From a virus, in the IMG/VR virus record IMGVR_UViG_3300034065_000148: a DNA stretch of 35,696 nucleotides; one strand, written 5' to 3'. The position numbers and the translations under genes were made by a program. The notes under the pieces are model-generated. The model worked only from the letters and a program-made list of their open reading frames with translations. It did not search any database and was not told where the DNA came from. Positions 1 through 35,696 of the stretch are shown piece by piece. The first letter of the stretch is position 1, and each line of letters starts with the position of its first letter.

Positions 1-127
1 CCAGGTTCTTTCCCGAATTCTGGAGCTAGCTCTATTGCTAGATTATATCTTAATGCTTTGTTATATCCCGGAGGCAAAGAGACAAGTGATGTAAGTAATG
101 AAAAGTCTGATAACTGCTTCCAAGACC
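1..127. repeat. Terminal direct repeat, identical to 35570-35696 (circular-assembly overlap or terminal redundancy)
   Basis: Base-by-base comparison of the two window ends: 127/127 identical. Confidence 0.97.
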
Positions 128-9070: not shown

Positions 9071-9527
9071 GTCTGGCCATTCTTCTATAAAAACTAGCGA
9101 GAGATTTGTATCGTTTTAAATCTTCTATCGTATAACCGCCATTGGCATATTTATCGGCTGCCCATTTACGAATAGGTTTCAATCTTTTCAATAGAAGTTT
9201 TGCTTGTTCTTTGACTGTATTTACGCCGGAATGATAATTAGTAAGCTTTTCTCTACCAATTTCTTTAATAAGCTCGCGTTCTATATCAAATGCGTCTGAT
9301 TCTAAAAGATCCTTGGCATAAACGAAGTATTTCACCTCGAAGCCGTCATTAATAATTTCTCTTATCCTTAGGGTCTTTCTCGGGTTATCAGAATTCCCTC
9401 TTTTGGCAGCGGGAACGTGTTGTTTCATTCTTTTCCCTTTGCCCTTGCCTACATAAAACACTTCCCCATTTCGAGGGTCTATCAACTGATAGACATAATA
9501 TTCTTTAGATTTTTCCTTCAGATCCAT
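9063..9527 (-). CDS. GIY-YIG domain nuclease-like protein
   Basis: YYVYQLIDPRNGEVFYVGKGKGKRMKQH matches the GIY-(x10)-YIG layout. It is the first gene of the late operon. Confidence 0.7.
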   Translation of the reverse strand: MDLKEKSKEYYVYQLIDPRNGEVFYVGKGKGKRMKQHVPAAKRGNSDNPRKTLRIREIINDGFEVKYFVYAKDLLESDAFDIERELIKEIGREKLTNYHSGVNTVKEQAKLLLKRLKPIRKWAADKYANGGYTIEDLKRYKSLASFYRRMARHG

Positions 9528-9630: not shown

Positions 9631-10047
9631 ATGATCTTGACCTTACAACGGACTGATTATTTGTCTGTAGGAATCTTCGGGACATTATCAAACGAAGACT
9701 CAACACTATTTCTCGCAACTGCCGAACATGCATACCCGGTCCAGCCAGCAGATGCGACATCTCTTTCTACTACATATTCGCCAAAGGTACCGAGCGGTCA
9801 ATATACCTGTATTTTAGGCCAGCATCAGCTATCCCGTGGAGTGCCGTTTGATGCCTATTGTTTGCAAGATGTCCCTGGTTGCACTGGGATATTGCTTCAC
9901 GTCGGAAATTACCCACAGACCGATAGTGAGGGATGCATCCTCTTAGGTCTTAGTAGAGTTGGGTTTATGATTCAGAGATCTCAAGACGCGTTTAAATTGT
10001 TTATGACAACTATGGCTGGGCAGCCATTTCAGTTAATAATTAGTTGA
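9631..10047 (+). CDS. DUF5675-like protein with a YkuD (L,D-transpeptidase)-like H-x-GN...S-x-GC-I-L motif
   Basis: The SGQYTC...VPGCTGILLHVGNYPQTDSEGCILLG pattern is characteristic of the phage/bacterial DUF5675 family. Confidence 0.65.
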   Translation: MILTLQRTDYLSVGIFGTLSNEDSTLFLATAEHAYPVQPADATSLSTTYSPKVPSGQYTCILGQHQLSRGVPFDAYCLQDVPGCTGILLHVGNYPQTDSEGCILLGLSRVGFMIQRSQDAFKLFMTTMAGQPFQLIIS

Positions 10048-10899: not shown

Positions 10900-10918
10900 A
10901 CACAGGTCGGTGACCTGC
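10900..10918 (+). promoter_or_regulatory. Dyad motif copy ACACAGGTCGGTGACCTGC
   Basis: Matches ACACWGG-N7-CCWG. Ends 1 nt before the integrase stop codon. Confidence 0.6.
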
Positions 10919-10919
10919 C

Positions 10920-11786
10920 TCACTTCTTAAGAATTGAATCAAGCTTAGCGGATATCGCGGTCACGGCTTCGAGCCTGGCAGAATCATCGAGCAAGGCGTA
11001 GCGGTCGGTCGTTTGCGTTGAATGATGGTTCAGGAGCTTTCCGATTACTTTCATATCAACTTTATTGCTCATGCCAACAGTTGCAAAAGTTCTGCGAAAA
11101 TCTCTCAGCCAAAGGTCCTCGCATCCAGCTTCTTTCCTTATTTTCCTAAACAGGTAACCAGGTGAAGGAATACCAAAAATAAGGCCATCCGATCGTTTCG
11201 GCAACTTATGGATCAATTCCATTATCTTTGGTGGGAGTATGACCGATTCAGGGTCTCCCGTAGCTTCTGTGCTTTTGCCATCAAAGACGAGTACTCCGAA
11301 GCCCGAAGACTCTGTAAACTCCGACCATCTAGAACGTTCAATAGAGCGAGGGCGAGCTCCCGTGAAGAGGAGTGTGTAGAGAAAAGTGATTTCAAGAGGT
11401 TGTGTTTTATACAACTTATCGAGGATTTCCCCGACTTTTTTGATTTCCGTTTCTGAGGCATAACGTCGCCTTTTTCTCTCAGTAAAGTGCTTAATGCCAA
11501 TGACCGGATTAAAGCCGCCGGCATTCCATTCTCGCTCGATACTGAATTTATAGAGTTTGGATATGATTTCGAGTAACCTATTGCCTGTGACTGGGGTTTT
11601 TGCAAATGATTTATGGAAGTCTCTAATTTGAACGCGAGTTACCGATAGGTAATCAATTGCTCCGAAAACTGGTTTTATATGATTTTTGTATTTGGCTCGA
11701 ACTTCTAGCGCGTGCCCTGATAGGTTGAATCTTGGACTATCCCAGTGATCTGCGAAGCATTTGGCAAAGAGCTCATCGATAGTCAC
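10920..11786 (-). CDS. int: Tyrosine recombinase / integrase (short, XerC/D-like size)
   Basis: Catalytic-region motifs TGARPRS, LRDFRRTFAT and LLNHHSTQTTDRYA (nucleophile Tyr). GTG start. Confidence 0.85.
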   Translation of the reverse strand: MTIDELFAKCFADHWDSPRFNLSGHALEVRAKYKNHIKPVFGAIDYLSVTRVQIRDFHKSFAKTPVTGNRLLEIISKLYKFSIEREWNAGGFNPVIGIKHFTERKRRRYASETEIKKVGEILDKLYKTQPLEITFLYTLLFTGARPRSIERSRWSEFTESSGFGVLVFDGKSTEATGDPESVILPPKIMELIHKLPKRSDGLIFGIPSPGYLFRKIRKEAGCEDLWLRDFRRTFATVGMSNKVDMKVIGKLLNHHSTQTTDRYALLDDSARLEAVTAISAKLDSILKK

Positions 11787-11841: not shown

Positions 11842-11860
11842 ACACAGGTAGATCACCTGT
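11842..11860 (+). promoter_or_regulatory. Dyad motif copy ACACAGGTAGATCACCTGT (perfect ACAGGT-N5-ACCTGT palindrome)
   Basis: Lies in the int / secreted-peptide spacer. Ends 1 nt before the stop codon at 11862. Confidence 0.6.
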
Positions 11861-11861
11861 C

Positions 11862-12122
11862 TCAATTACTTAAACAACTATATCCACCAGATCCATTGCG
11901 CATACAACCGATATGGGTAGCGCTATTGTTGTATACAGGCATCGGTCTGGGCGGCACATATATTGGAGCCGATTGAATTGGGATGTAGGCGGGAGGATTG
12001 TATACCGGTACCGGTTGGTAAGTAGGAACCTGCATAGGAACAAACGTAGCTCTTGGCATTTGAACCCATTGAGCGTTAGCCGAAATTGGGATTAGAATTA
12101 GTAGAACGAGTAAATATTTCAT
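11862..12122 (-). CDS. Secreted proline-rich small protein with a C-terminal Cys-x9-Cys loop
   Basis: Signal peptide MKYLLVLLILIPISANA|Q. GAGGTG RBS before the ATG at 12122. The mature part is rich in P/V/Y. Confidence 0.65.
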   Translation of the reverse strand: MKYLLVLLILIPISANAQWVQMPRATFVPMQVPTYQPVPVYNPPAYIPIQSAPIYVPPRPMPVYNNSATHIGCMRNGSGGYSCLSN

Positions 12123-12162
12123 AGTCACCTCACTTCAAAATCAGTATAGCTCAAAAAATGGT

Positions 12163-12200: not shown

Positions 12201-12356
12201 ATGAGAAAAAACACCGCAGTGATAACCATAAGAATCCCAGAGGTTACCAAAGCTGAACTAGAGCTTTTAAAAAAGAACAAGTTTAACCCAGGCGAGATAT
12301 GTCGGGATCTTTTAATAAATGGAATTAAAGAGTTTTTAAAAAAGATTAAAAAATAA
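12201..12356 (+). CDS. Ribbon-helix-helix (Arc/CopG/MetJ-type) transcriptional regulator, 51 aa (below the track cutoff)
   Basis: Manual translation MRKNTAVITIRIPEVTKAELELLKKNKFNPGEICRDLLINGIKEFLKKIKK. The beta-strand plus two-helix pattern is typical of RHH proteins. Confidence 0.6.
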   Translation: MRKNTAVITIRIPEVTKAELELLKKNKFNPGEICRDLLINGIKEFLKKIKK

Positions 12357-15638: not shown

Positions 15639-16069
15639 AAGGGAAGGTTTTTATGGACGGTATAGTTTTACTTATAGCGGTCGTATTTTTAATACTAGCC
15701 GCTTATCTTTTTGTAAGTAGAAACGATGGGGCATCAAAAGAATTAAAAGAGACGACATCAGATTTGAAAGCATCTCTTAAAATTGTTCAGGATACTTTAG
15801 ACAAAGTAAACGAATCTAATTCAGAACTTGTTCAAGAATTAAAAGCAATCAAAACTGTATCTGATGGTTTATTCGCTGATCATGGAAAGCGAATATCCGA
15901 TATTGAAAACAAAAAGCCACTCACTCAGCTAAACGATATTAATTTGAGATTTAAAGAGCCTCTGAAGGTTTCTATTATTTACAGAGAAGCTATGAAAAAG
16001 TTACCCGAGATTCCAGCTCACATGAATGGTAAAATGCCTTTGATTAAACGAGCGGGGTTAATACCGTGA
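15635..16069 (+). CDS. Membrane-anchored coiled-coil protein
   Basis: 144-aa ORF with the N-terminal TM segment IVLLIAVVFLILAAYLFV followed by charged helical sequence. Confidence 0.6.
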   Translation: MKGKVFMDGIVLLIAVVFLILAAYLFVSRNDGASKELKETTSDLKASLKIVQDTLDKVNESNSELVQELKAIKTVSDGLFADHGKRISDIENKKPLTQLNDINLRFKEPLKVSIIYREAMKKLPEIPAHMNGKMPLIKRAGLIP

Positions 16070-16368
16070 TTAGACATTTAATTAAACCACTACGAGAACA
16101 AATTTTAGTTGAACTAGCAGACCCAGAAGAGAAAACTTTCGGTGGAATTATTATTCCCGAAACTGCTCAAGAGAAACCAAGAAAAGCTACTGTGATTGCA
16201 GTAGGAGAAGGTTGGCATAATGAGAAAAACACTAAAGTTATTCCTCTAGGAGTAAAGCCTGGGGATAAGATTTTAATCGGCACAAATATGAAGGGCACAG
16301 ACTTAACTTTAAGAGGGAAGAAATACGAAATGATTAGAGAGAATTATATTTTTGCGGTGCTAACATGA
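16066..16368 (+). CDS. groES: Co-chaperonin GroES (Cpn10) homolog
   Basis: IKPLREQILVE...EEKTFGGIIIPETAQEKPRKATVIAVGEG...LGVKPGDKILIG...YEMIRENYIFAVL is collinear with bacterial GroES, including the mobile loop. GTG start with GTGA overlap. Confidence 0.85.
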   Translation: MIRHLIKPLREQILVELADPEEKTFGGIIIPETAQEKPRKATVIAVGEGWHNEKNTKVIPLGVKPGDKILIGTNMKGTDLTLRGKKYEMIRENYIFAVLT

Positions 16369-17042
16369 GTGAATATCAATTCACAAATGCATGGTTTTCT
16401 CCACTAGTTCAAAGTGTGTGGAACATGATTGTTCCAATGGATGCACCGAAAAGATTCTTAGAGATTGGATCTTTTGAAGGTCGAAGTACGACATGGTTTA
16501 TAAACAAATTTGCAAGACAATGGGACATAGAAGTCCATTGCATTGATTCATGGGCAGGCTGTTCCGATAATGCATTAATGGAAGTTGATTTCAATGCATC
16601 GGAAAATAGATTTAAACACAATATGGAAATAGCTACAAAAAATAATCCATTTAAAACAGATCTTCATGTTCATAAAGGTACTTCAGAAAGTGAATTAATA
16701 AGGCTTTGCGCGAATGGATATCTTAATTATTTTGATGTCATTTACGTCGATGCAAATCACGAAGCTGCGGAGTGTTTGTCTGATGCCGTTCTCGCATGGA
16801 AGCTTTTAAAAATGCACGGGCTTATGATTTTTGATGATTACATTTTTGCAGTTCCCAATAGACCAAGGTGGGATGTTCCTAAAACTGCGATTGATGCTTT
16901 CTTAAATATTCACTGTAACGATGCGCATTTGATAAACGCTCCAAATCAGCAGGTATATGTGAAGAAAATTAAAGAGGGTGATTTGGTTTGGGCCCATAAG
17001 GCTCCAGTGTCTAAATCAGGTTCAAAACCTGAGGGAAAATGA
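16365..17042 (+). CDS. Class I SAM-dependent methyltransferase (O-methyltransferase/Methyltransf_24-like)
   Basis: FLEIGSFEGRST (motif I-like), IYVDANHE, and GLMIFDDY. Confidence 0.65.
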   Translation: MSEYQFTNAWFSPLVQSVWNMIVPMDAPKRFLEIGSFEGRSTTWFINKFARQWDIEVHCIDSWAGCSDNALMEVDFNASENRFKHNMEIATKNNPFKTDLHVHKGTSESELIRLCANGYLNYFDVIYVDANHEAAECLSDAVLAWKLLKMHGLMIFDDYIFAVPNRPRWDVPKTAIDAFLNIHCNDAHLINAPNQQVYVKKIKEGDLVWAHKAPVSKSGSKPEGK

Positions 17043-17206
17043 GAAACACATATCACCGCTGCGAACTAAAAGAGTTTTGGATTAAGAATGGTTTTCTGGA
17101 CCCAAAAGAAGGTGTGATTAGATTAACACCGCCGGATGAGCTTACAGAAGACTATTTCTGCCATGTAATTGTTGAGCCAGGTCCGGACCCAAAGGACGAG
17201 AAATGA
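17039..17206 (+). CDS. Hypothetical 55-aa protein (below the track cutoff)
   Basis: MRNTYHRCELKEFWIKNGFLDPKEGVIRLTPPDELTEDYFCHVIVEPGPDPKDEK. ATGA overlaps on both sides. Confidence 0.5.
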   Translation: MRNTYHRCELKEFWIKNGFLDPKEGVIRLTPPDELTEDYFCHVIVEPGPDPKDEK

Positions 17207-17532
17207 GCTTCTTTAAGCCTAGCGATTTTTATGACATGGAAATTGGCTCAGCATCCAAAAATCCTGGCCTAAATTTCTGTGATTTAGCGGCAATTAGGGC
17301 TAATGAAAAACTTATTGGAGCAGAAATGAACGGTAATGAAGAAAAACTCAGAGACAGATGTTCTGAATTAGAACAGGCCCTTTTTATGGTCCTTTGCTCA
17401 ACGTTAGTATCAACGGATGAACATGACTGGAGAAACTGCAAACAACCTAGTTGTGTAGTTGCTCGTAAAGCTTTAAAAATTGATACAGGTCCGGAACCAG
17501 TTGAAAAAGAAACTATAAAAGGAGAAAAATAA
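17203..17532 (+). CDS. Hypothetical protein
   Basis: 109-aa ORF, translationally coupled to its neighbours. Confidence 0.6.
   Translation: MSFFKPSDFYDMEIGSASKNPGLNFCDLAAIRANEKLIGAEMNGNEEKLRDRCSELEQALFMVLCSTLVSTDEHDWRNCKQPSCVVARKALKIDTGPEPVEKETIKGEK
17483..17501 (+). promoter_or_regulatory. Dyad motif copy ATACAGGTCCGGAACCAGT
   Basis: ACAGG-N7-CCAGT, ending 30 nt before the start codon at 17532. Confidence 0.5.
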
Positions 17533-17819
17533 TGGCAAAGAAGTACGTGATAGTAAGAACTTATTCGGCTGGAGTATTTGCCGGATATCTTAAAGCAAGA
17601 AAAGGGCAAGAAGTTACTTTAACTAATGCTAGGCGCCTTTGGTATTGGAAAGGTGCTGCTTCATTGAGTCAACTCGCGGTCGATGGAGTTTCTTCCCCTC
17701 AAGAATGTAAATTTCCCGCTGAAGTTTCTAATGTTGAATTATTACAAGCGATAGAGATTTTAGACGTTACTAAAAAGGCTCAAAAATCTATTGCATCGGT
17801 GGCGGTATGGAAGAGTTAA
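17532..17819 (+). CDS. Conserved-looking small phage protein of unknown function
   Basis: 95-aa ORF, VIVRTYSAGVFAGYL...NARRLWYWKGAASLSQLA. GGAG RBS. Confidence 0.65.
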   Translation: MAKKYVIVRTYSAGVFAGYLKARKGQEVTLTNARRLWYWKGAASLSQLAVDGVSSPQECKFPAEVSNVELLQAIEILDVTKKAQKSIASVAVWKS

Positions 17820-18073
17820 AAAATGACGGCTCCGGCTCCGGCTACGGCTACGGCGACGGCTACGGCTCCGGCTACGGCTCCGGCTCCGGCTACGGCTCCG
17901 GCTCCGGCTACGGCTACGGCTCCGGCTCCGGCTACGGCTCCGGCTACGGCGACGGCTACGGCTCCGGCTACGGCTACGGCTCCGGCTCCGGCTACGGCTA
18001 CGGCGACGGCTCCGGCTACGGCTCCGGCTACGGCTACGGCTCCGGCTCCGGCTACGGCTACGGCGACGGCTGA
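17807..18073 (+). CDS. Gly-Tyr-Ser-Asp dipeptide-repeat protein, MEELKND + (G-[YSD])40-G
   Basis: ATG preceded by GGTGG, overlapping the upstream gene by 13 nt. The stop falls exactly at the end of the repeat array. The choice of frame is uncertain. Confidence 0.5.
   Translation: MEELKNDGSGSGYGYGDGYGSGYGSGSGYGSGSGYGYGSGSGYGSGYGDGYGSGYGYGSGSGYGYGDGSGYGSGYGYGSGSGYGYGDG
17828..18070. repeat. 243-bp perfect hexanucleotide array built only from GGCTCC, GGCTAC and GGCGAC
   Basis: 40 hexamers plus a final GGC. About 70% or more GC inside an AT-rich genome. Long ORFs are present in two plus frames and one minus frame. Confidence 0.95.
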
Positions 18074-18077
18074 TTTA

Positions 18078-18096
18078 TGAAAGGTTTCCAACCTGT
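18078..18096 (+). promoter_or_regulatory. Dyad motif copy TGAAAGGTTTCCAACCTGT (weaker left half)
   Basis: AAAGG-N7-CCTGT followed by TGAAAAG, as in the other copies. Ends 22 nt before the methylase start. Confidence 0.4.
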
Positions 18097-18118
18097 TGAA
18101 AAGTAGTATGAAAGGCGA

Positions 18119-18847
18119 TTGCTCTATTTAGGGGATTGTTTGGAGGTTATGAAAAGCTTAGACGATAAGAGCATTGATATGGTTCTAACGGACCCTCCTT
18201 ACGGTACTACGGCTTGTAAGTGGGATACTGTTATCCCTTTTGAACCTATGTGGCGTGAGCTTAAAAGAATAACCAAAGGTCCTGTTCTTTTATTCGGAAG
18301 TGAACCGTTTTCTAGCTCGCTAAGAATAAGTTGTAGGGATTGGTATAGATATGACTGGGTTTGGAAAAAACAAAGAGCTGGTGGGTTTCCAATGGCCAAC
18401 AAGAGACCGCTTAAAAACATTGAACTAATCTCTGTTTTTTCTTTTAAGCAGTCTGCCTATTATCCTCAAGGCCTTGTCGATTGCCTTATAGATCAACGAA
18501 GAAAATCAAAATTATGCGCTTTCGTTAAATCGATAAAAAACCATGGTGGGATTCAAACTAAAACCAATTTTCCTAAAATGTTAATTGAAGGGTTTAAACA
18601 GGATTTTAAAACGGTTCATCCTACCCAAAAACCAGTCCCACTCCTCGAATACCTAATCAAGACCTATACCCTCGAAGGCGAAACTGTCCTAGATTTCACG
18701 ATGGGCAGCGGCTCGACTGGGGTTGCTTGTAAAAATTTAAACCGTAAATTTATAGGCATTGAAAAAGATCAAACCTATTTCGATATAGCGAAGGCTCGCA
18801 TTGCAGGTTCGAGACCTAGCGTTCAATTGGATATGATGAGTGTTTAA
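18119..18847 (+). CDS. DNA methyltransferase (beta-class N6-adenine/N4-cytosine, orphan)
   Basis: DMVLTDPPYG (motif IV) lies N-terminal to FTMGSGSTGVACKNLNRKFIGIEKD (motif I). TTG start. Confidence 0.85.
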   Translation: MLYLGDCLEVMKSLDDKSIDMVLTDPPYGTTACKWDTVIPFEPMWRELKRITKGPVLLFGSEPFSSSLRISCRDWYRYDWVWKKQRAGGFPMANKRPLKNIELISVFSFKQSAYYPQGLVDCLIDQRRKSKLCAFVKSIKNHGGIQTKTNFPKMLIEGFKQDFKTVHPTQKPVPLLEYLIKTYTLEGETVLDFTMGSGSTGVACKNLNRKFIGIEKDQTYFDIAKARIAGSRPSVQLDMMSV

Positions 18848-18865
18848 CACTGGTTATCCACCTGT
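18847..18865 (+). promoter_or_regulatory. Dyad motif copy ACACTGGTTATCCACCTGT
   Basis: Its first base is the last base of the methylase TAA. Ends 18 nt before the sigma gene start. Confidence 0.6.
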
Positions 18866-18883
18866 TGCGAAAAAGGACTGACC

Positions 18884-19507
18884 TTGGATGACAAAACAGC
18901 CGCGCACCTCCTTAAAAGACTTAAAGCAAGTGCTTCCATACTTGGGTTTGGATCTGAAGCAGAGGAAATTAGTCAGGCAGTTCTCACGCGAATGCTCGAA
19001 GGCAGGCATAAACATGCAACCTGTGAACAAGCTGTTATCGATTATTTACGGTCTAATTATGGTCGAAAGGGGGAACCTAGCTATGATCTTAGGCAGGCAT
19101 TCACTCTTAAACGACTCAGCTTCGAAGAATACTTTATTGAACATCCAGGACAGTTTGGAACTGAATCACCAAATAGATCGTATGCTTTTGATATACTCGG
19201 ATATTTTAGGGGTGTCGAAAGGGCGATGTTCCTCTTGAATCATTACTGGGGATTTAATGAAGTTGAGATCGGCAATCTCTTTGGAGTTAGTGAATCAAGG
19301 GTATCTCAGAGGCTCCAAAGCCTTCAGGGCCGCTTATCAGCGCGAATTAAGGCGGAAGCCTGGAATGAAAGAAAAAGAGAGGGCAAAATGGAAGGCATAT
19401 TATTACCGGAAGCAGAAAGCGAATCCGGATTGGAACAAGGAACGTTTGAAAGAATGGAGATTGGCCAATCCTGGCAAATGGAAAAACTTAATGAGGAGAG
19501 CTTCTGA
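18884..19507 (+). CDS. Sigma-70 family (ECF-like) sigma factor
   Basis: Region-2-like AEEISQAVLTRMLEG...VIDYLRS and region-4 HTH RAMFLLNHYWGFNEVEIGNLFGVSESRVSQRLQSLQGRL. TTG start. The last ~45 codons overlap the next gene. Confidence 0.6.
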   Translation: MDDKTAAHLLKRLKASASILGFGSEAEEISQAVLTRMLEGRHKHATCEQAVIDYLRSNYGRKGEPSYDLRQAFTLKRLSFEEYFIEHPGQFGTESPNRSYAFDILGYFRGVERAMFLLNHYWGFNEVEIGNLFGVSESRVSQRLQSLQGRLSARIKAEAWNERKREGKMEGILLPEAESESGLEQGTFERMEIGQSWQMEKLNEESF

Positions 19508-19712
19508 AAATGGACTCCACCGCCGCTTCTACGCAAACCACAGAGAAGAACTTAAACGGAAAAAATCAGCCATCGGAGCCAAAGCCCGTCGCAAAGACCC
19601 ATGCTTTGGTCTCAGGAGAGAAATCTCTGAGTTCCGAAAAACCCTCGACTTCGGAAAGTTTATCGAAGAACTTGGCCACAGAGTTGATGGGATTGATAAG
19701 AAAAGTAAATGA
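19365..19712 (+). CDS. Basic K/R/W-rich protein (start uncertain; the track ORF begins at 19257)
   Basis: MKEKERAKWKAYYYRKQKANPDWNKERLKEWRLANPGKWKNLMRR... reads as genuine protein. It overlaps the sigma ORF tail in another frame. Confidence 0.45.
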   Translation: MKEKERAKWKAYYYRKQKANPDWNKERLKEWRLANPGKWKNLMRRASENGLHRRFYANHREELKRKKSAIGAKARRKDPCFGLRREISEFRKTLDFGKFIEELGHRVDGIDKKSK

Positions 19713-19815
19713 GCATGGGGTGACGGCTGAGACAGTGAATGCGAGCTGTAATGCTGCCGCCCAGATCCATAAGATTTTAAGACTTAATTTTGATATGAAA
19801 AAAGATGGGTTTTAA
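19510..19815 (+). CDS. Hypothetical protein (start uncertain: 19510 or the internal ATG at 19687)
   Basis: Third frame of the overlapping trio. The stop TAA is fused to a dyad motif copy. Confidence 0.4.
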   Translation: MDSTAASTQTTEKNLNGKNQPSEPKPVAKTHALVSGEKSLSSEKPSTSESLSKNLATELMGLIRKVNEHGVTAETVNASCNAAAQIHKILRLNFDMKKDGF

Positions 19816-19833
19816 CACTGGTTCTCAGCCTGT
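19815..19833 (+). promoter_or_regulatory. Dyad motif copy ACACTGGTTCTCAGCCTGT
   Basis: Its first base is the last base of a TAA stop. Ends 12 nt before the ATG at 19846. Confidence 0.6.
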
Positions 19834-19845
19834 GAAAGAGAAAGA

Positions 19846-19956
19846 ATGAACTGCGTGTTATGTGGAACTCCTATTGCTACGGACCCGCAAATTACCAATA
19901 TTTGCGACTGGTGTATTGATGAACAGTGTCAGCCTGCCGCGAAGGAGAAGGAATGA
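19846..19956 (+). CDS. 36-aa zinc-ribbon micro-protein (below the track cutoff)
   Basis: MNCVLCGTPIATDPQITNICDWCIDEQCQPAAKEKE. Two CxxC pairs. ATGA overlap with the next gene. Confidence 0.5.
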   Translation: MNCVLCGTPIATDPQITNICDWCIDEQCQPAAKEKE

Positions 19957-20168
19957 GTAAAGAAGATCTGGTTTCAATTCTAATCATAACGATGAATTGT
20001 TTTTGGCTCGGAACTTGGCTAGACCAAAAGTTCTTACTTAGGAAAAGGTTTCTTAACAAAAGCTATGAAGAAGCCACTAAAAAAGGAAGGTGTCCGATTT
20101 GTGAAAGGCCCATTAAAGTCATCAGTGACACTGGTTCGGAGCCTATCGAGGAGGGTAAATGTTCTTAA
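19953..20168 (+). CDS. Small membrane protein with a CPIC Zn-knuckle
   Basis: The ATG at 19953 follows a GGAGAAGG RBS (the track start at 19926 is less likely). TM segment LVSILIITMNCFWLGTWL. Confidence 0.55.
   Translation: MSKEDLVSILIITMNCFWLGTWLDQKFLLRKRFLNKSYEEATKKGRCPICERPIKVISDTGSEPIEEGKCS
20128..20146 (+). promoter_or_regulatory. Dyad motif copy ACACTGGTTCGGAGCCTAT
   Basis: Lies inside the 3' end of the preceding gene. Ends 12 nt before the ATG at 20159. Confidence 0.5.
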
Positions 20169-20242
20169 TAGGATTCGGTGCCGGAATAATCTCGACTTTG
20201 ATTGTAATCGGTTTGGTCATCAAAGCCGCTGACTTCTTTTAA
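20159..20242 (+). CDS. Possible 27-aa single-TM peptide (below the track cutoff)
   Basis: MFLIGFGAGIISTLIVIGLVIKAADFF. GGAGGG RBS. Confidence 0.45.
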   Translation: MFLIGFGAGIISTLIVIGLVIKAADFF

Positions 20243-20259
20243 CCAGGATTGAAACCAGT
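20241..20259 (+). promoter_or_regulatory. Dyad motif copy AACCAGGATTGAAACCAGT
   Basis: Overlaps the TAA at 20240-20242 and abuts the ATG at 20260. Confidence 0.45.
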
Positions 20260-20484
20260 ATGACTAAACTAGAAGAAATTGAGGCCTATGCACATAGACG
20301 AGGCGGTTGCCCAGAATGTGATCGACGCATTGAAGATGATCAAGTGGACTGGCTCATCAATCGGGTCAAGGTCCTCACTGAGGCTTTGGAGAAAGCCGAT
20401 AGGCATATTTATTATCTTGGGGACAAGAACTATAAGACATTCGAGTTTGACGATACTGGTGAGAGACCTGGGGAGAAAGAATGA
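20260..20484 (+). CDS. Hypothetical protein with a CPEC motif
   Basis: 74-aa ORF. ATGA overlap with the next gene. Confidence 0.6.
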   Translation: MTKLEEIEAYAHRRGGCPECDRRIEDDQVDWLINRVKVLTEALEKADRHIYYLGDKNYKTFEFDDTGERPGEKE

Positions 20485-20666
20485 CTGCGGACGAATTCGT
20501 TGCCTGGTTAAAAGGATATTTTGAACTTGGTCAATCGCCTTGGGTCGATGATAGAAATAGACCGCTGGCAAAAAGTGCCAGACAAATGTTTTGGGGAGAA
20601 GACAAAATTAAACTCATTCAAGAAAAACTCTTCTCCGTTAAAAAGCCTAACGAGCCTGGTTTATAG
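20481..20666 (+). CDS. Hypothetical protein
   Basis: 61-aa ORF, translationally coupled. Confidence 0.55.
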   Translation: MTADEFVAWLKGYFELGQSPWVDDRNRPLAKSARQMFWGEDKIKLIQEKLFSVKKPNEPGL

Positions 20667-20671
20667 CCTGT
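20653..20671 (+). promoter_or_regulatory. Dyad motif copy AGCCTGGTTTATAGCCTGT
   Basis: Spans the TAG stop at 20664-20666. The GTG at 20670 lies inside its right half. Confidence 0.45.
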
Positions 20672-20690
20672 GGAGAGAATAAGCGACTTT

Positions 20691-20849
20691 GTGAAGGGCA
20701 ACGGAAACTTAATTACAGTAGGCCAATACGAAATCAGAGAATTATCAGATGGCTCTTATTGGATTGAGCATGAGAGTGGCGAAGGAACACAAGTCGCAAG
20801 AGATGCATTTGAAGCCCTGATAACTCAGTTTTATGCTGATGTTTTTTAA
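20691..20849 (+). CDS. Hypothetical 52-aa protein (alternative GTG start at 20670; below the track cutoff)
   Basis: VKGNGNLITVGQYEIRELSDGSYWIEHESGEGTQVARDAFEALITQFYADVF. The stop TAA is fused to a dyad motif copy. Confidence 0.45.
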   Translation: MKGNGNLITVGQYEIRELSDGSYWIEHESGEGTQVARDAFEALITQFYADVF

Positions 20850-20867
20850 CACAGGCTTAGCGCCTGT
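20849..20867 (+). promoter_or_regulatory. Dyad motif copy ACACAGGCTTAGCGCCTGT
   Basis: Its first base is the last base of a TAA stop. Perfect ACAGG/CCTGT dyad. Confidence 0.6.
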
Positions 20868-20974
20868 TGAGTAGGCCCGCCTAGGAATAGTTTGTGAGTT
20901 TAACGTCTACTCCTAGACGGGTGGAGAATTCACCGCCATGGTGATTCAATAAATTTTATCATATTTAGGTGAAA

Positions 20975-23856: not shown

Positions 23857-25926
23857 GGTCATTGACGGGAAGCTTGAAACTGCCCCCGGCTGTGAATCTC
23901 TCGTGCTTATTATTGTTGTGCCGTCTGTGAGGCTAAATGAGGGATCGTCTCCCGAACTCGCCACGCCACCGTAAGTGAAACTAGCGGTTATTTGAAAAAC
24001 TTGTGAGCTACTGCCTGGAGTAAAAACAATCCCAGGTAAACTACCAGCCGCAGCTGTTACCGTAATACCAGATGATTTTCTAGTCGTTAAGGTGTTTGTC
24101 GAGGTAGTTGATGGGTCAGCTAGTGCCGTTGTAGAATATACCCAGCCAACTGTAGGACTATTCACAGTACTGCCAGAAAAATAAGACCCAGTTACTGATG
24201 TTGCTGCAGCTTGAAATGTAGGAGCAACTCCGGCACCATTAGAAGTTAAAACACTTCCACTTGACCCTACCGCCGTAGAACTAACCGCCGTTCCACTTGT
24301 TGCGTAAATAATTCCGTTTGTATTAAGTCCAGAAAACCCTGCTGGCAATGATCCTTGAGCTGATTCATACATCCAAGACCATGATGCTGTCCCTGTGCCG
24401 CCGCTCGTATTTATACATACAAGTTTAAGAACAGTATTCGCCGCCATCGCCTGTATTACGTTTGCTCCAGAGCTTTCTACAGTTACAACGCCAGTTGAAA
24501 GATTGAATATTTCAAACCCTTGCCCTTGAGCAAGTCCTGTTACAACTGGCAATGTTACTGTCTGAGTTGTTGACCCAGTGAAAAATTGATAATAGTTACT
24601 CCCAACCAATAAGGCTGTAGTCCCGGCAGCGGTAGCAGTTGAAGTGCCTGCAGGGATATAAGAGTCAAAAGACATATTTTTATTAGCATCCCATTCGGCA
24701 ATAGTAGATGCTGCTGGGGAAGAGCTAAAAGCGTTTGATGTGAGTGCCTTACTTCCATTTACTGTTAGAGCCTGACTCGCCGTGACTGATGAGAAGACAG
24801 GAGCGCTTGTAAATGTCTGAGCATTTGCAAATGTTTGAGCAAGTCCAAGTGTTGCAACCGAATCACCTGCTGTTATATTTGGGAATTTCAAAATCTGAGA
24901 AGTTGTTTGAGTTGGCTCTAGAGTAAGCGTTGTAGATGCAGAGTTATTGCTAGCATTGAACGCCAAGACCTTACTATTTGTTGTACTGTCTTCGATATTT
25001 AAAACGTTTGAGGTATCGATGATATTGGCAATTGTAGGCGTTGCGCTAAACGAAGGCGCCCCTGTTGCTCCACTTATTAATGGATTTCCAAGAGTCCCCG
25101 CAGCAGTAGAAGCCATAGTTGTCGTAGCAGAGAAGTATGGAACACCCCATTGAGTAGCAGATATTGCAGCTCCAGTTCCACCTCCAGCTATTGGTAAAAG
25201 TTGGAATGTAGGTGCAGCCGAAGAGTTAGCCACTAAAGGGTAATTTGCTGTTCCAGCCGATGTTGTTCCTAAGGTTGTCGTGGTTGGAGCATAACAAGCC
25301 CCGTATTGATTAAAGTTTGATCCTTGCCCAGTTCCACCAAGAGTGTTCGGTAAAGTTGTATCAACACCCCAAGCTCCAGAAGAAATAAAAGGAACTCCAG
25401 TTGATGATCCTGAATTTATCCCAGTTCCACCATAAGTTGAAGAAATCTTGGTTCCTTGCCAAATGCCAGTTCCAATTGTTCCGACTGTTGTGAGCGAAGA
25501 TTCGGTTGTTGTGTTAAGTGTTGTTGGTATATCAGCGGCTACAAGTGATCTAAATGTAGGGTCAGTAGCTCCGCCAGAACTGGGACCTGCAAAAACAGTA
25601 TTAGCAGATTGATTTTTTGCACTGAAAGTTAAAGTTCCGCTTCCAGTAACCGGACTTCCAGTAATTGAGTAAATAGCAGTAGATGAGCCATCGGCAAGAG
25701 CCACAGAACTCACTCCTCCACCTCCGCCAGACCCAACTGCCGTCCATGTATTTGCAGGATAACAAAGATTAAGTGTTGAGCTTCCAGATGAGAATCTAAG
25801 CGTTCCACTTCCACATTTCGAGGGTAGTGAATTTGGATTTAGGGTTAGGTAATTGAAAACTCCACCTTGTTGGGCCAGAGCTATAGTCCATACTAGATTA
25901 CATACTATAAATAATAGATATTTCAT
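23716..25926 (-). CDS. Tail-fibre-like S/T/G-rich protein carrying an N-terminal Sec-type signal peptide
   Basis: MKYLLFIVCNLVWTIALA|QQ. Fibre-type motifs: ANTVFAGPSSGGATDPTFRSLVAADIP and repeated GGTG (LGGTGQGS, AGGGTGAA, YGGTGINS). TAAATG junction with the upstream RBP gene. Confidence 0.7.
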   Translation of the reverse strand: MKYLLFIVCNLVWTIALAQQGGVFNYLTLNPNSLPSKCGSGTLRFSSGSSTLNLCYPANTWTAVGSGGGGGVSSVALADGSSTAIYSITGSPVTGSGTLTFSAKNQSANTVFAGPSSGGATDPTFRSLVAADIPTTLNTTTESSLTTVGTIGTGIWQGTKISSTYGGTGINSGSSTGVPFISSGAWGVDTTLPNTLGGTGQGSNFNQYGACYAPTTTTLGTTSAGTANYPLVANSSAAPTFQLLPIAGGGTGAAISATQWGVPYFSATTTMASTAAGTLGNPLISGATGAPSFSATPTIANIIDTSNVLNIEDSTTNSKVLAFNASNNSASTTLTLEPTQTTSQILKFPNITAGDSVATLGLAQTFANAQTFTSAPVFSSVTASQALTVNGSKALTSNAFSSSPAASTIAEWDANKNMSFDSYIPAGTSTATAAGTTALLVGSNYYQFFTGSTTQTVTLPVVTGLAQGQGFEIFNLSTGVVTVESSGANVIQAMAANTVLKLVCINTSGGTGTASWSWMYESAQGSLPAGFSGLNTNGIIYATSGTAVSSTAVGSSGSVLTSNGAGVAPTFQAAATSVTGSYFSGSTVNSPTVGWVYSTTALADPSTTSTNTLTTRKSSGITVTAAAGSLPGIVFTPGSSSQVFQITASFTYGGVASSGDDPSFSLTDGTTIISTRDSQPGAVSSFPSMTLTGIYAPANTSANTIKIQGAVNAGTIAIISAGSIVPSIEWTVIRIF

Positions 25927-35436: not shown

Positions 35437-35696
35437 TTATTCTCCTGTTAGCCAATTAAATCCTGGTTTTCTGGGTATTGTAGCCACGTCACATTGTAAT
35501 AATGTTGGCTTGTTATTCATTCTCTTAATATCTGCTTTTGAATCAGTTGCTTGAGCAACGATAAGTGGGCCAGGTTCTTTCCCGAATTCTGGAGCTAGCT
35601 CTATTGCTAGATTATATCTTAATGCTTTGTTATATCCCGGAGGCAAAGAGACAAGTGATGTAAGTAATGAAAAGTCTGATAACTGCTTCCAAGACC
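35437..35696 (-). CDS. 3' part of the gp4-like adaptor gene (same gene as 1-578; 35570-35696 duplicates 1-127)
   Basis: Track ORF 35437..35646 continues the frame of 1-578 through the terminal overlap: ...LPPGYNKALRYNLAIELAPEFGKEPGPLIVAQATDSK... Confidence 0.7.
   Translation of the reverse strand, partial: SWKQLSDFSLLTSLVSLPPGYNKALRYNLAIELAPEFGKEPGPLIVAQATDSKADIKRMNNKPTLLQCDVATIPRKPGFNWLTGE
35570..35696. repeat. Second copy of the 127-bp terminal overlap
   Basis: Identical to 1-127. Confidence 0.97.

Follow-up and report, generated by a model that had tools for sequence, protein, structure and literature searches.

The simple recombinase sites lox/Cre, FRT/Flp and dif/XerCD or XerA consist of two inverted arms of about 10-13 bp around a centre of 6-8 bp, and Xer-like enzymes use sites of about 28 bp, with arms of about 11 bp and a centre of 6-8 bp. 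The sfx sites of the Rci shufflon are 19-bp repeats with a 7-bp spacer; these have one spacer in common and opposite orientations, and serve to flip segments of a single gene. The attC sites of integrons are 57-141 nt long and are used as a folded single strand with extrahelical bases and RYYYAAC/GTTRRRY cores. Clusters of attC have been reported in phages (PMC9892861). In T4-type phages, elements named PeSLs, of about 100 bp and made of a sigma-70 early promoter and a terminator stem-loop, recombine by homology (PMC2839356, PMC4122927). Cluster A mycobacteriophages carry stoperators, 13-bp asymmetric sites read by a monomeric repressor (PMC9283540) and spread genome-wide (PMC9283540, PMC6550527), and Cluster K has start-associated sequences, asymmetric motifs tied to translation starts (PMC3203893). 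Phage genomes are mosaics, and it has long been asked how exchange can be aimed at gene boundaries and leave the genes intact; most often this is put down either to illegitimate recombination at random, with selection afterwards, or to relaxed homologous recombination (PMC2327257). Here we looked at a short dyad, CWGG-N7-CCWG in its core, that recurs at gene junctions of a virus genome (IMG/VR record IMGVR_UViG_3300034065_000148). The window, that is the whole stretch analysed, has 35,696 nt, and coordinates are positions in it. A description of such an element was not found in the literature searched.

Distribution of the dyad in the window and in related genomes

The window starts and ends with an exact 127-bp direct repeat (1-127 = 35570-35696), so the genome is a complete assembly of about 35.57 kb, closed circular or terminally redundant. 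Its portal protein, whose best cultured match is that of Rhodoferax phage P26218 (45%), places the virus only broadly, among the environmental P22-like podoviruses. A megablast of the 12.0-21.5 kb region against the phage collection gave no match.

The pattern CWGG-N7-CCWG was found 12 times in the window, against 1.27 +/- 1.08 expected from dinucleotide shuffles, and none of 100 shuffles reached 12. When spacers from 0 to 15 were scanned, the excess of CWGG/CCWG was confined to spacer 7, the other spacers giving 0-3 matches. Independently, a position weight matrix (PWM) of 29 positions was trained on 65 sites taken from related genomes only. It gave 12 plus-strand matches in the window, where shuffles gave 0.7 for both strands together, and these matches were confined to 10903, 11845 and 17017-20852. 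An earlier note, made from the letters of this DNA, had named matches spread through the late genes at the shuffled rate as the result that would count against the motif; the late and structural genes contained none. Two matches of the simple pattern, at 24033 and 29867, failed the PWM and were discarded as chance or coding matches. An excess of the converse pattern CCWG-N15-CWGG was also dismissed as chance, its matches being scattered in late genes, with two of them belonging to the terminal repeat.

In the early array, almost all accessory-gene cassettes have a dyad site at their 3' boundary, and further sites lie on both sides of the integrase gene. The eight array copies described in the earlier note, and its copy at 11842, were recovered with the same sequence and position, and exactly five perfect copies (ACWGG-N7-CCWGT) are present in the window, as counted there. 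Its inventory, offered as possibly incomplete, was indeed so: we added 10903, which follows the stop codon of the integrase gene directly, 17017, 17178, whose right arm is degenerate, and 20456, as well as a weak copy at 18804. The ninth copy suspected at 19921-19937 turned out to be a remnant of the right half and not a full copy. The placement relative to genes was also as described. A TAA stands one base ahead of ACWGG at 18847, 19815 and 20849, the 20241 copy begins in a TAA, copies end 0-30 nt ahead of the next start codon, and the 20653 copy overlaps the GTG at 20670.

Copies with spacer 7 were counted in L025 (20), L039 (16), L032 (10), L041 (8), L040 (7), L030 (6) and L031 (4), where other spacers gave 0-3. 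The motif-rich relatives share a 288-aa integrase at 63-88% identity. L069 and L096, recovered from the junction sequence alone, carry 8 copies each. Nine related, highly mosaic genomes of one phage family carry 6-20 copies each, and the motif is present at gene boundaries in at least eight relatives, a conservation that the earlier note had pointed to as informative. No comparable motif excess was detected in phages with an integrase of at most 44% identity. In those with integrases of 36-44% identity, a dyad of their own was sought with an exact-palindrome test, a crude one that barely detects the known motif in L025. A DUF6948 search of genome contigs gave two distant, uninformative loci only, a single-sequence scan of JGI metagenomes with the integrase gave one short close relative only, and a further junction-pattern scan gave no new family member among the matches listed. 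A search with the extended consensus returned one unrelated conserved marine locus (viral contigs L003-L009), a chance match: the pattern there belongs to the ordinary coding sequence of a large structural protein with x-G-x-x-P repeats.

The dyad as a duplex-DNA element

Symmetry and covariation were analysed on 72 curated sites, and translation on 87 sites from nine genomes. The element is a duplex-DNA dyad of about 27 bp, TT-r-A-n-A-C-W-G-G-T ... A-C-C-W-G-T-n-k-A-A, around a centre of 5-7 bp. The base preferences of positions -6..5 are mirrored at 20..9 with correlations of 0.88-1.0. However, the complementarity of mirrored pairs equals the independent-column expectation at every pair, with 0.51 against 0.59 expected for the W pair. 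The half-sites had been described as reverse complements; they are mirrored, but true palindromes are a minority, since in most copies the W of one arm does not pair with that of the other (CTGG..CCTG). Because the half-sites mirror each other yet vary independently, the pattern is of the protein-dimer type, and it suggests that each half-site is recognised on its own, in the manner of a dimeric DNA-binding protein. This supports the dimeric binding site that was among the roles first considered. Reverse-complement symmetry in the absence of pairing is characteristic of duplex DNA, and the reading of the element as a DNA dyad is well supported.

Translation of the sites bears on a different reading, in which the element encodes a C-terminal peptide tag, [D/N]-T-G-x-x-P-V-E-K, and the copies located after TTT-TAA-C are reached by a programmed +1 frameshift. 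Fifty-eight of the 87 sites are read through in one T-G-x-x-P frame, 10 begin one base past a stop, 7 contain a stop, and 12 are intergenic or are entered from another frame. Reading through yields a tail x-[T/S/P/A]-G-x-x-P-x, and otherwise the gene stops one base before the site or inside it. In favour of a tag, one frame reads [D/N]-T-G-x-x-P-V-[E/K] in nearly every copy, the variable bases are third codon positions, and several centres are synonymous variants (TCA AAA / TCC AAA; TCT CAG / TCA CAG). Yet the 29 sites that are wholly or partly untranslated keep both arms intact. The residue after Pro comes from any GNN codon (V, E, D, G, A) and the one before Gly from any NCW, indicating nucleotide classes; T follows GG in 85% of the sites, while GGT represents 24% of Gly codons genome-wide; and the T at -5 reaches 92% conservation although it ends codons for six amino acids (Ile, Phe, Val, Cys, Ser and Asn), the background of T in third positions being 36%. 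The T-G and P-V codons are, moreover, mutually reverse-complementary, which is no requirement of a peptide. Concerning the frameshift, four window copies follow [T/G]TT-TAA-C and three copies are in the +1 frame after TTT-TAA-C, but the L011 orthologue of the open reading frame (ORF) 19510-19815 likewise ends ..KKDGF* and has no tail, the sequences ahead of the minus-strand copies, AAT-TGA-G and AAG-TGA-G, are not slippery, and sites with a stop inside the centre still keep the right arm. These results indicate that the constraint acts on DNA and that the read-through tail is harmless; a coded tag is very unlikely.

Two further readings place the function in transcripts. A hairpin in the polycistronic mRNA, possibly a mimic of the tRNA T-arm, could govern how the transcript is processed, how stable it is or how its translation is coupled; in favour, a tRNA T-arm or anticodon arm has this 5+7+5 geometry, the position just before the next start codon would suit it, and four copies (20849, 17014, 11842, 10900) fold with z of -1.2 to -2.5. 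The eight array copies, in contrast, fold no better than shuffles (z of -0.2 to +1.5), the lack of covariation described above holds at every mirrored pair, and the dyad sites gave no Rfam family match at gathering score. The short RNA stem proposed in the earlier note is thus not borne out, mimicry of the T-arm at the RNA level was ruled out since the arms are not complementary, and a hairpin of any of these kinds is highly improbable. Even less credit can be given to a promoter element for the phage sigma-like protein (18884-19507), another of the roles listed in the earlier note, or to an intrinsic terminator between genes. The sites do lie upstream of genes, and a protein resembling sigma-70 region 4 is encoded in the array, but this gene is absent from every other motif-bearing genome, the dyad does not have a -35/-10 architecture, and matches to sigma-70-type promoters and intrinsic terminators were at or below shuffle level. 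Conversely, five relatives with a sigma-like gene lack the motif. Fetched through the sigma-like protein, they served as a negative control; they share with the window only a two-gene module, 18908-19815, and nucleotide homology to them stops at 19811-19815, at the stop codon just before site 19817.

Centres, cassette turnover and the candidate recombinase

The 7-nt centres form about 25 discrete classes. Exact 7/7 matches of centres between genomes were observed in 294 site-versus-genome comparisons, where column shuffles predict 13, and one-mismatch matches between genomes were depleted (51 against 120 expected). The order of the classes is identical in all nine arrays, a typical run being TAATGTA, TCTTAAG, TTCAAAA, TCCGGAA, TTTCCAA, TTATCCA, TTCTCAG, TTCGGAG, TCCTAAA, TCTAGAA, and a centre is never repeated within any one genome. 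Only three pairs of centres within a genome differ by a single mismatch. All are adjacent sites around a single cassette, as with 17178/17486 in the window (sites 17177..17193 and 17485..17501, near-duplicates), and such a pair is the footprint expected from insertion at a site. The centres are kept far better than the neighbouring tail positions or the W positions of the arms. In L030 (reverse complement), just past the Methyltransf_24 stop, a junction of the TTAATAC class has a 2-nt insertion in its centre, ACTGG-GATTAATAC-CCTGG, so that the spacer has 9 nt; this site seems to have decayed but still keeps the phase of stop, one nucleotide and site.

The genes between the sites, in contrast, turn over. 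Among 86 same-class site pairs, the upstream genes were homologous in 4 and the downstream genes in 2; the proteins of a slot are unrelated apart from the tail, and the 108 cassette ORFs gave 6 cross-genome homologous pairs only. The conserved island is sharply bounded, about 27-40 nt in length, with identity that is random up to -11 and again about 30 nt downstream, at the stop/start overlap. Homology with L030 begins at the left arm in the window (site 17485..17501) as well as in L032. L069 and L040 are about 95% identical up to ..GAAACAGGT and differ from the first base of the centre on, where a TCCTAAA junction stands against a TTCTCAG junction, so that the breakpoint is resolved to a single nucleotide. 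In all, three left-hand breakpoints were mapped to the boundary between left arm and centre. The window Methyltransf_24 carries the TTCAAAA tail, whereas its orthologues in L030 and L041, 65-68% identical, do not. A recombination boundary for cassette shuffling, one of the roles listed at the outset, is therefore strongly supported as a pattern, with ordered junctions that split unrelated genes and breakpoints at the arm/centre boundary, and the sites are well supported as cassette junctions.

The 288-aa recombinase has the conserved catalytic-domain residues and no arm-binding N-domain, and its nearest solved relatives are XerA/XerC-like proteins of about 290-320 aa. It is the only window protein common to all seven integrase-linked loci, and L025 and the window share the integrase alone within +/-10 kb. 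Dyad sites and recombinase occur together in 7 of 9 loci, and the two best dyads flank the int gene, where attP is expected in a closed genome. We therefore put forward, tentatively but as the most plausible of the readings, that recombination at these sites exchanges cassettes, that their probable reader is this co-inherited Xer-like tyrosine recombinase, and that the centres serve as heterospecific barcodes. Both the protein involved and the chemistry of the exchange are inferences here. The putative recombinase would most probably bind and cut the dyad sites, and the centre would act like the overlap region of lox, FRT or dif, the reaction being productive only between sites with the same centre. 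Two related genomes, phage and phage or phage and prophage, could in this way swap the content between two equivalent junctions, and the outcome would be a natural form of recombinase-mediated cassette exchange (RMCE), while unlike centres within one genome would prevent self-deletion. If the two partners had to have identical centres, this would account for the exact agreement of centres between genomes, for their differences within a genome and for their collinearity. Since all sites use one reading-frame convention, any exchange would leave an in-frame tail and a coupled next start. The complete scheme, a phage-encoded RMCE in which an Xer-like recombinase, common arms and about 25 heterospecific addresses allow slot-by-slot swaps of accessory genes with order and frame kept, is possible, though we hold it with more reserve.

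Complete tRNA-Asn genes lie near or next to the integrase gene in four relatives: L025 (4359-4432), L039 (10861-11007), L041 (9585-9658) and L032, which has two copies, 9165-9238 and 9645-9718, about 480 bp apart. L039 also has a tRNA-Trp, and the window is without tRNA. A tRNA-Asn near the integrase may mark the attachment region. Its T-arm, TCTGG-TTCGAGT-CCAGA, stands beside int in these four relatives with the same 5+7+5 layout as the dyad.

Several points weigh against the recombinase reading. Solved Xer structures give weak matches (best E = 4e-7), the arms have about 8 informative positions each, which is short for an Xer- or Cre-type arm, and the tRNA T-arm matches the core only and not the outer TT/AA positions. 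Seven of the nine motif loci were fetched via the integrase, so that its co-occurrence with the sites is partly circular and biased, and L069 and L096 show no integrase in the available sequence, which consists of partial contigs. On the right-hand side, the limits of homology lie at +16 to +33 and not in the centre, in many cases where stop and start codons overlap (ATGA). Classical tyrosine recombinases disfavour the joining of unlike centres, and the L069 joint links two unlike classes, TTCTCAG and TCCTAAA. Genes for homologous recombination (Gp157, ERF or a PDDEXK nuclease) are likewise present in every genome, and their products could swap cassettes through conserved islands of 25-35 nt. 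Finally, metagenome assemblers could join strains at conserved islands and exaggerate mosaicism; this is countered by the islands being mostly shorter than 31 nt and by the agreement of four independent data sources.

Some of these points fit better with an array of operators, in which a dimeric phage or host regulator would bind the junction dyads, for instance blocking or timing transcription of the accessory genes as stoperators do, and mosaicism would be a by-product of single-strand annealing at the 25-35 nt islands. The dyad is of the protein type with independent half-sites, and sites lie inside operons, just upstream of the next ribosome-binding site. The recombination genes carried by all genomes, the right-hand breakpoints at the island edge (ATGA) and the two partial genomes in which no integrase is seen all suit such a reading, and in T4-type phages conserved regulatory motifs, the PeSLs, mediate shuffling (PMC2839356, PMC4122927). 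On the other hand, no regulator is conserved across the motif-bearing loci, and the protein labelled ribbon-helix-helix (RHH) in the earlier note (12201-12356) has no Pfam support. A centre that is not contacted should drift, yet the centres are exact; regulation needs neither their uniqueness within a genome nor their collinearity between genomes; left breakpoints cluster at the arm/centre boundary; and for a small helix-turn-helix or RHH dimer a span of 27 bp, in which bases as far as 12-13 bp from the centre are conserved, is long. An operator array, also among the roles listed in the earlier note, is in our view the main rival, less likely than recombination sites but credible; if the sites were operators, the exact conservation of the centres would still need explaining.

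To the usual answers on mosaic exchange, the sites add a third pattern, a protein-read DNA punctuation at each cassette boundary, in which a position-specific address is kept while the cargo genes turn over completely. The cassettes are likely to carry anti-defence or host-takeover genes. If the sites are recombinase substrates, they would represent an ordered viral counterpart of the integron and a natural precedent for RMCE with many orthogonal spacers, and they would offer about 25 heterospecific sites and a compact recombinase for genome engineering. Either way, the junction grammar delimits accessory cassettes in uncultured phage genomes.

Neighbouring features and comparison with known systems

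Table 1. Dyad sites and the recombinase gene in the window, with their context.
Feature	Coordinates	Strand	Centre	Context and remarks	PWM score
Dyad site, candidate attP or strong site	10902..10918	-		Directly after integrase stop; TGA-G-GCAGG-TCACCGA-CCTGT; near-perfect dyad	24.9 (minus strand)
288-aa tyrosine recombinase gene	10920..11786	-		Phage_integrase catalytic domain, Xer-like size; candidate site reader	
Dyad site	11844..11860	-		Between 88-aa secreted-protein ORF (11862-12128) and integrase gene; minus strand TGA-G-ACAGG-TGATCTA-CCTGT; best dyad in genome	29.9
Junction site	17016..17032	+	TTCAAAA	Translated as last 9 codons of Methyltransf_24 gene (..SKSGSKPEGK*)	
Junction site	17177..17193	+	TCCGGAC	Degenerate right arm CCAAA; C-terminus of ORF 17039-17206	
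Junction site	17485..17501	+	TCCGGAA	C-terminus of ORF 17203-17532 (..DTGPEPVEK..)	33.2
Junction site	18080..18096	+	TTTCCAA	Left arm AAAGG; untranslated; after Gly-Ser-Tyr repeat gene	
Weak, uncertain copy	18803..18819	+		GCAGG-TTCGAGA-CCTAG; inside 3' end of N6/N4 methylase gene	Below threshold
Junction site	18849..18865	+	TTATCCA	Untranslated; one base past TAA of N6/N4 methylase gene	
Junction site	19817..19833	+	TTCTCAG	One base past TAA of ORF 19510-19815	
Right-half remnant	19921..19937	+		..TGTCAG-CCTGC; C-terminus of 36-aa ORF 19846-19956; resembles centre of site 19817..19833	
Junction site	20130..20146	+	TTCGGAG	Right arm CCTAT; C-terminus of ORF 19953-20168	
Junction site	20243..20259	+	ATTGAAA	Begins in TAA of 27-aa hydrophobic ORF 20159-20242; ends at ATG 20260	
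Probable junction site	20455..20471	+	TGAGAGA	C-terminus of ORF 20260-20484 (..DDTGERPGEKE*); simple pattern and context fit	<10
Junction site	20655..20671	+	TTTATAG	TAG stop of ORF 20481-20666 inside centre, right arm untranslated	
Last junction site	20851..20867	+	CTTAGCG	One base past TAA of ORF 20670-20849; true palindrome	

Several neighbours of the sites (Table 1) deserve mention. The strongly hydrophobic 27-aa mini-ORF 20159-20242 (MFLIGFGAGIISTLIVIGLVIKAADFF) occupies a slot of its own between two junction sites. After the last junction site, the non-coding stretch 20868-20960 folds into a long hairpin and a second stem (-28.8 kcal/mol, z = -2.8); it gave no Rfam match and may be an end-of-operon terminator or an RNA of a new kind. 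The 88-aa ORF 17807-18073 consists almost entirely of Gly-Ser-Tyr/Asp repeats (GSGYGYGDGYGSGYG..) and adjoins a DUF6948 gene, a pair that is also found in L030 and L040. An independent Logan assembly of this genome (L018, identical to the window) breaks inside this repeat. The early region also carries a gene for a phage-encoded Cpn10 (GroES-like) co-chaperonin (16066-16368), conserved in L030 and L041. On the minus strand, the 88-aa ORF 11862-12128, which separates the early control region from the integrase gene, has a signal-peptide-like N-terminus and a Pro/Tyr/Val-rich body, and its predicted product looks like a secreted or envelope 'moron' protein.

Among the described systems, the PeSLs, like the phage sites, are short conserved elements flanking small ORFan genes in hyperplastic regions, at the boundaries of insertions, deletions and replacements, and they have been proposed to target shuffling to safe intergenic positions. 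The phage element differs in its 27 bp, in having neither promoter nor terminator signal nor stem, and in its junction-specific centres in conserved order; two thirds of the sites are inside ORFs, usually the upstream one. The resemblance to the stoperators and start-associated sequences, noted from the start, is one of placement, with many copies of a short motif at gene junctions near stop and start codons in a lineage-specific family. It does not extend to the architecture, a dyad as opposed to a 13-bp asymmetric site read by a monomer (PMC9283540), and the phage sites are confined to accessory arrays and have conserved, site-specific centres.

The array also recalls an integron, in that co-oriented, mostly promoterless small ORFs each end in an imperfectly symmetric site, often overlapping the stop codon, with a tyrosine recombinase nearby and hypervariable cassette content. 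In contrast to integrons, the site has 27 bp and shows no covariation of pairs, an attI/Pc platform is missing, and the slots, each with a barcode and a set place in the order, are not interchangeable. The attC-core-like sequences TTTAAC and GTTGAAA occur in only some window copies, and identity with attC was ruled out by size, by the lack of a stable fold and of covariation, and by the family-wide flanks T-r-A-n and n-G-A-A-A. With the shufflon the phage sites share a 19-bp repeat with a 7-bp spacer inside coding sequence, changed C-termini and a tyrosine recombinase, but they are co-oriented, all their centres differ, and whole genes are exchanged between genomes.

The comparison with lox, FRT and dif goes further. 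In the phage, too, inverted arms of about 10-11 bp that are read independently surround a short asymmetric centre of 5-7 bp, about 27 bp in total, so that both the layout of the arms and their independence agree; the identity of the centre would define which sites are equivalent, different centres coexist on one molecule without deletion, and next to the sites the genome encodes a small recombinase that lacks an arm-binding domain. As in engineered RMCE with heterospecific spacers, the cassettes are flanked by two unlike sites. What sets the phage sites apart is the shortness of the arms, with about 8 informative positions, the set of about 25 natural centre classes in a fixed order, their embedding in the 3' ends of coding sequences, the breakpoints that in some cases fall outside the centre, and the one joint of unlike centres. 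By analogy, the phage sites would work most like a set of heterospecific simple recombinase sites.

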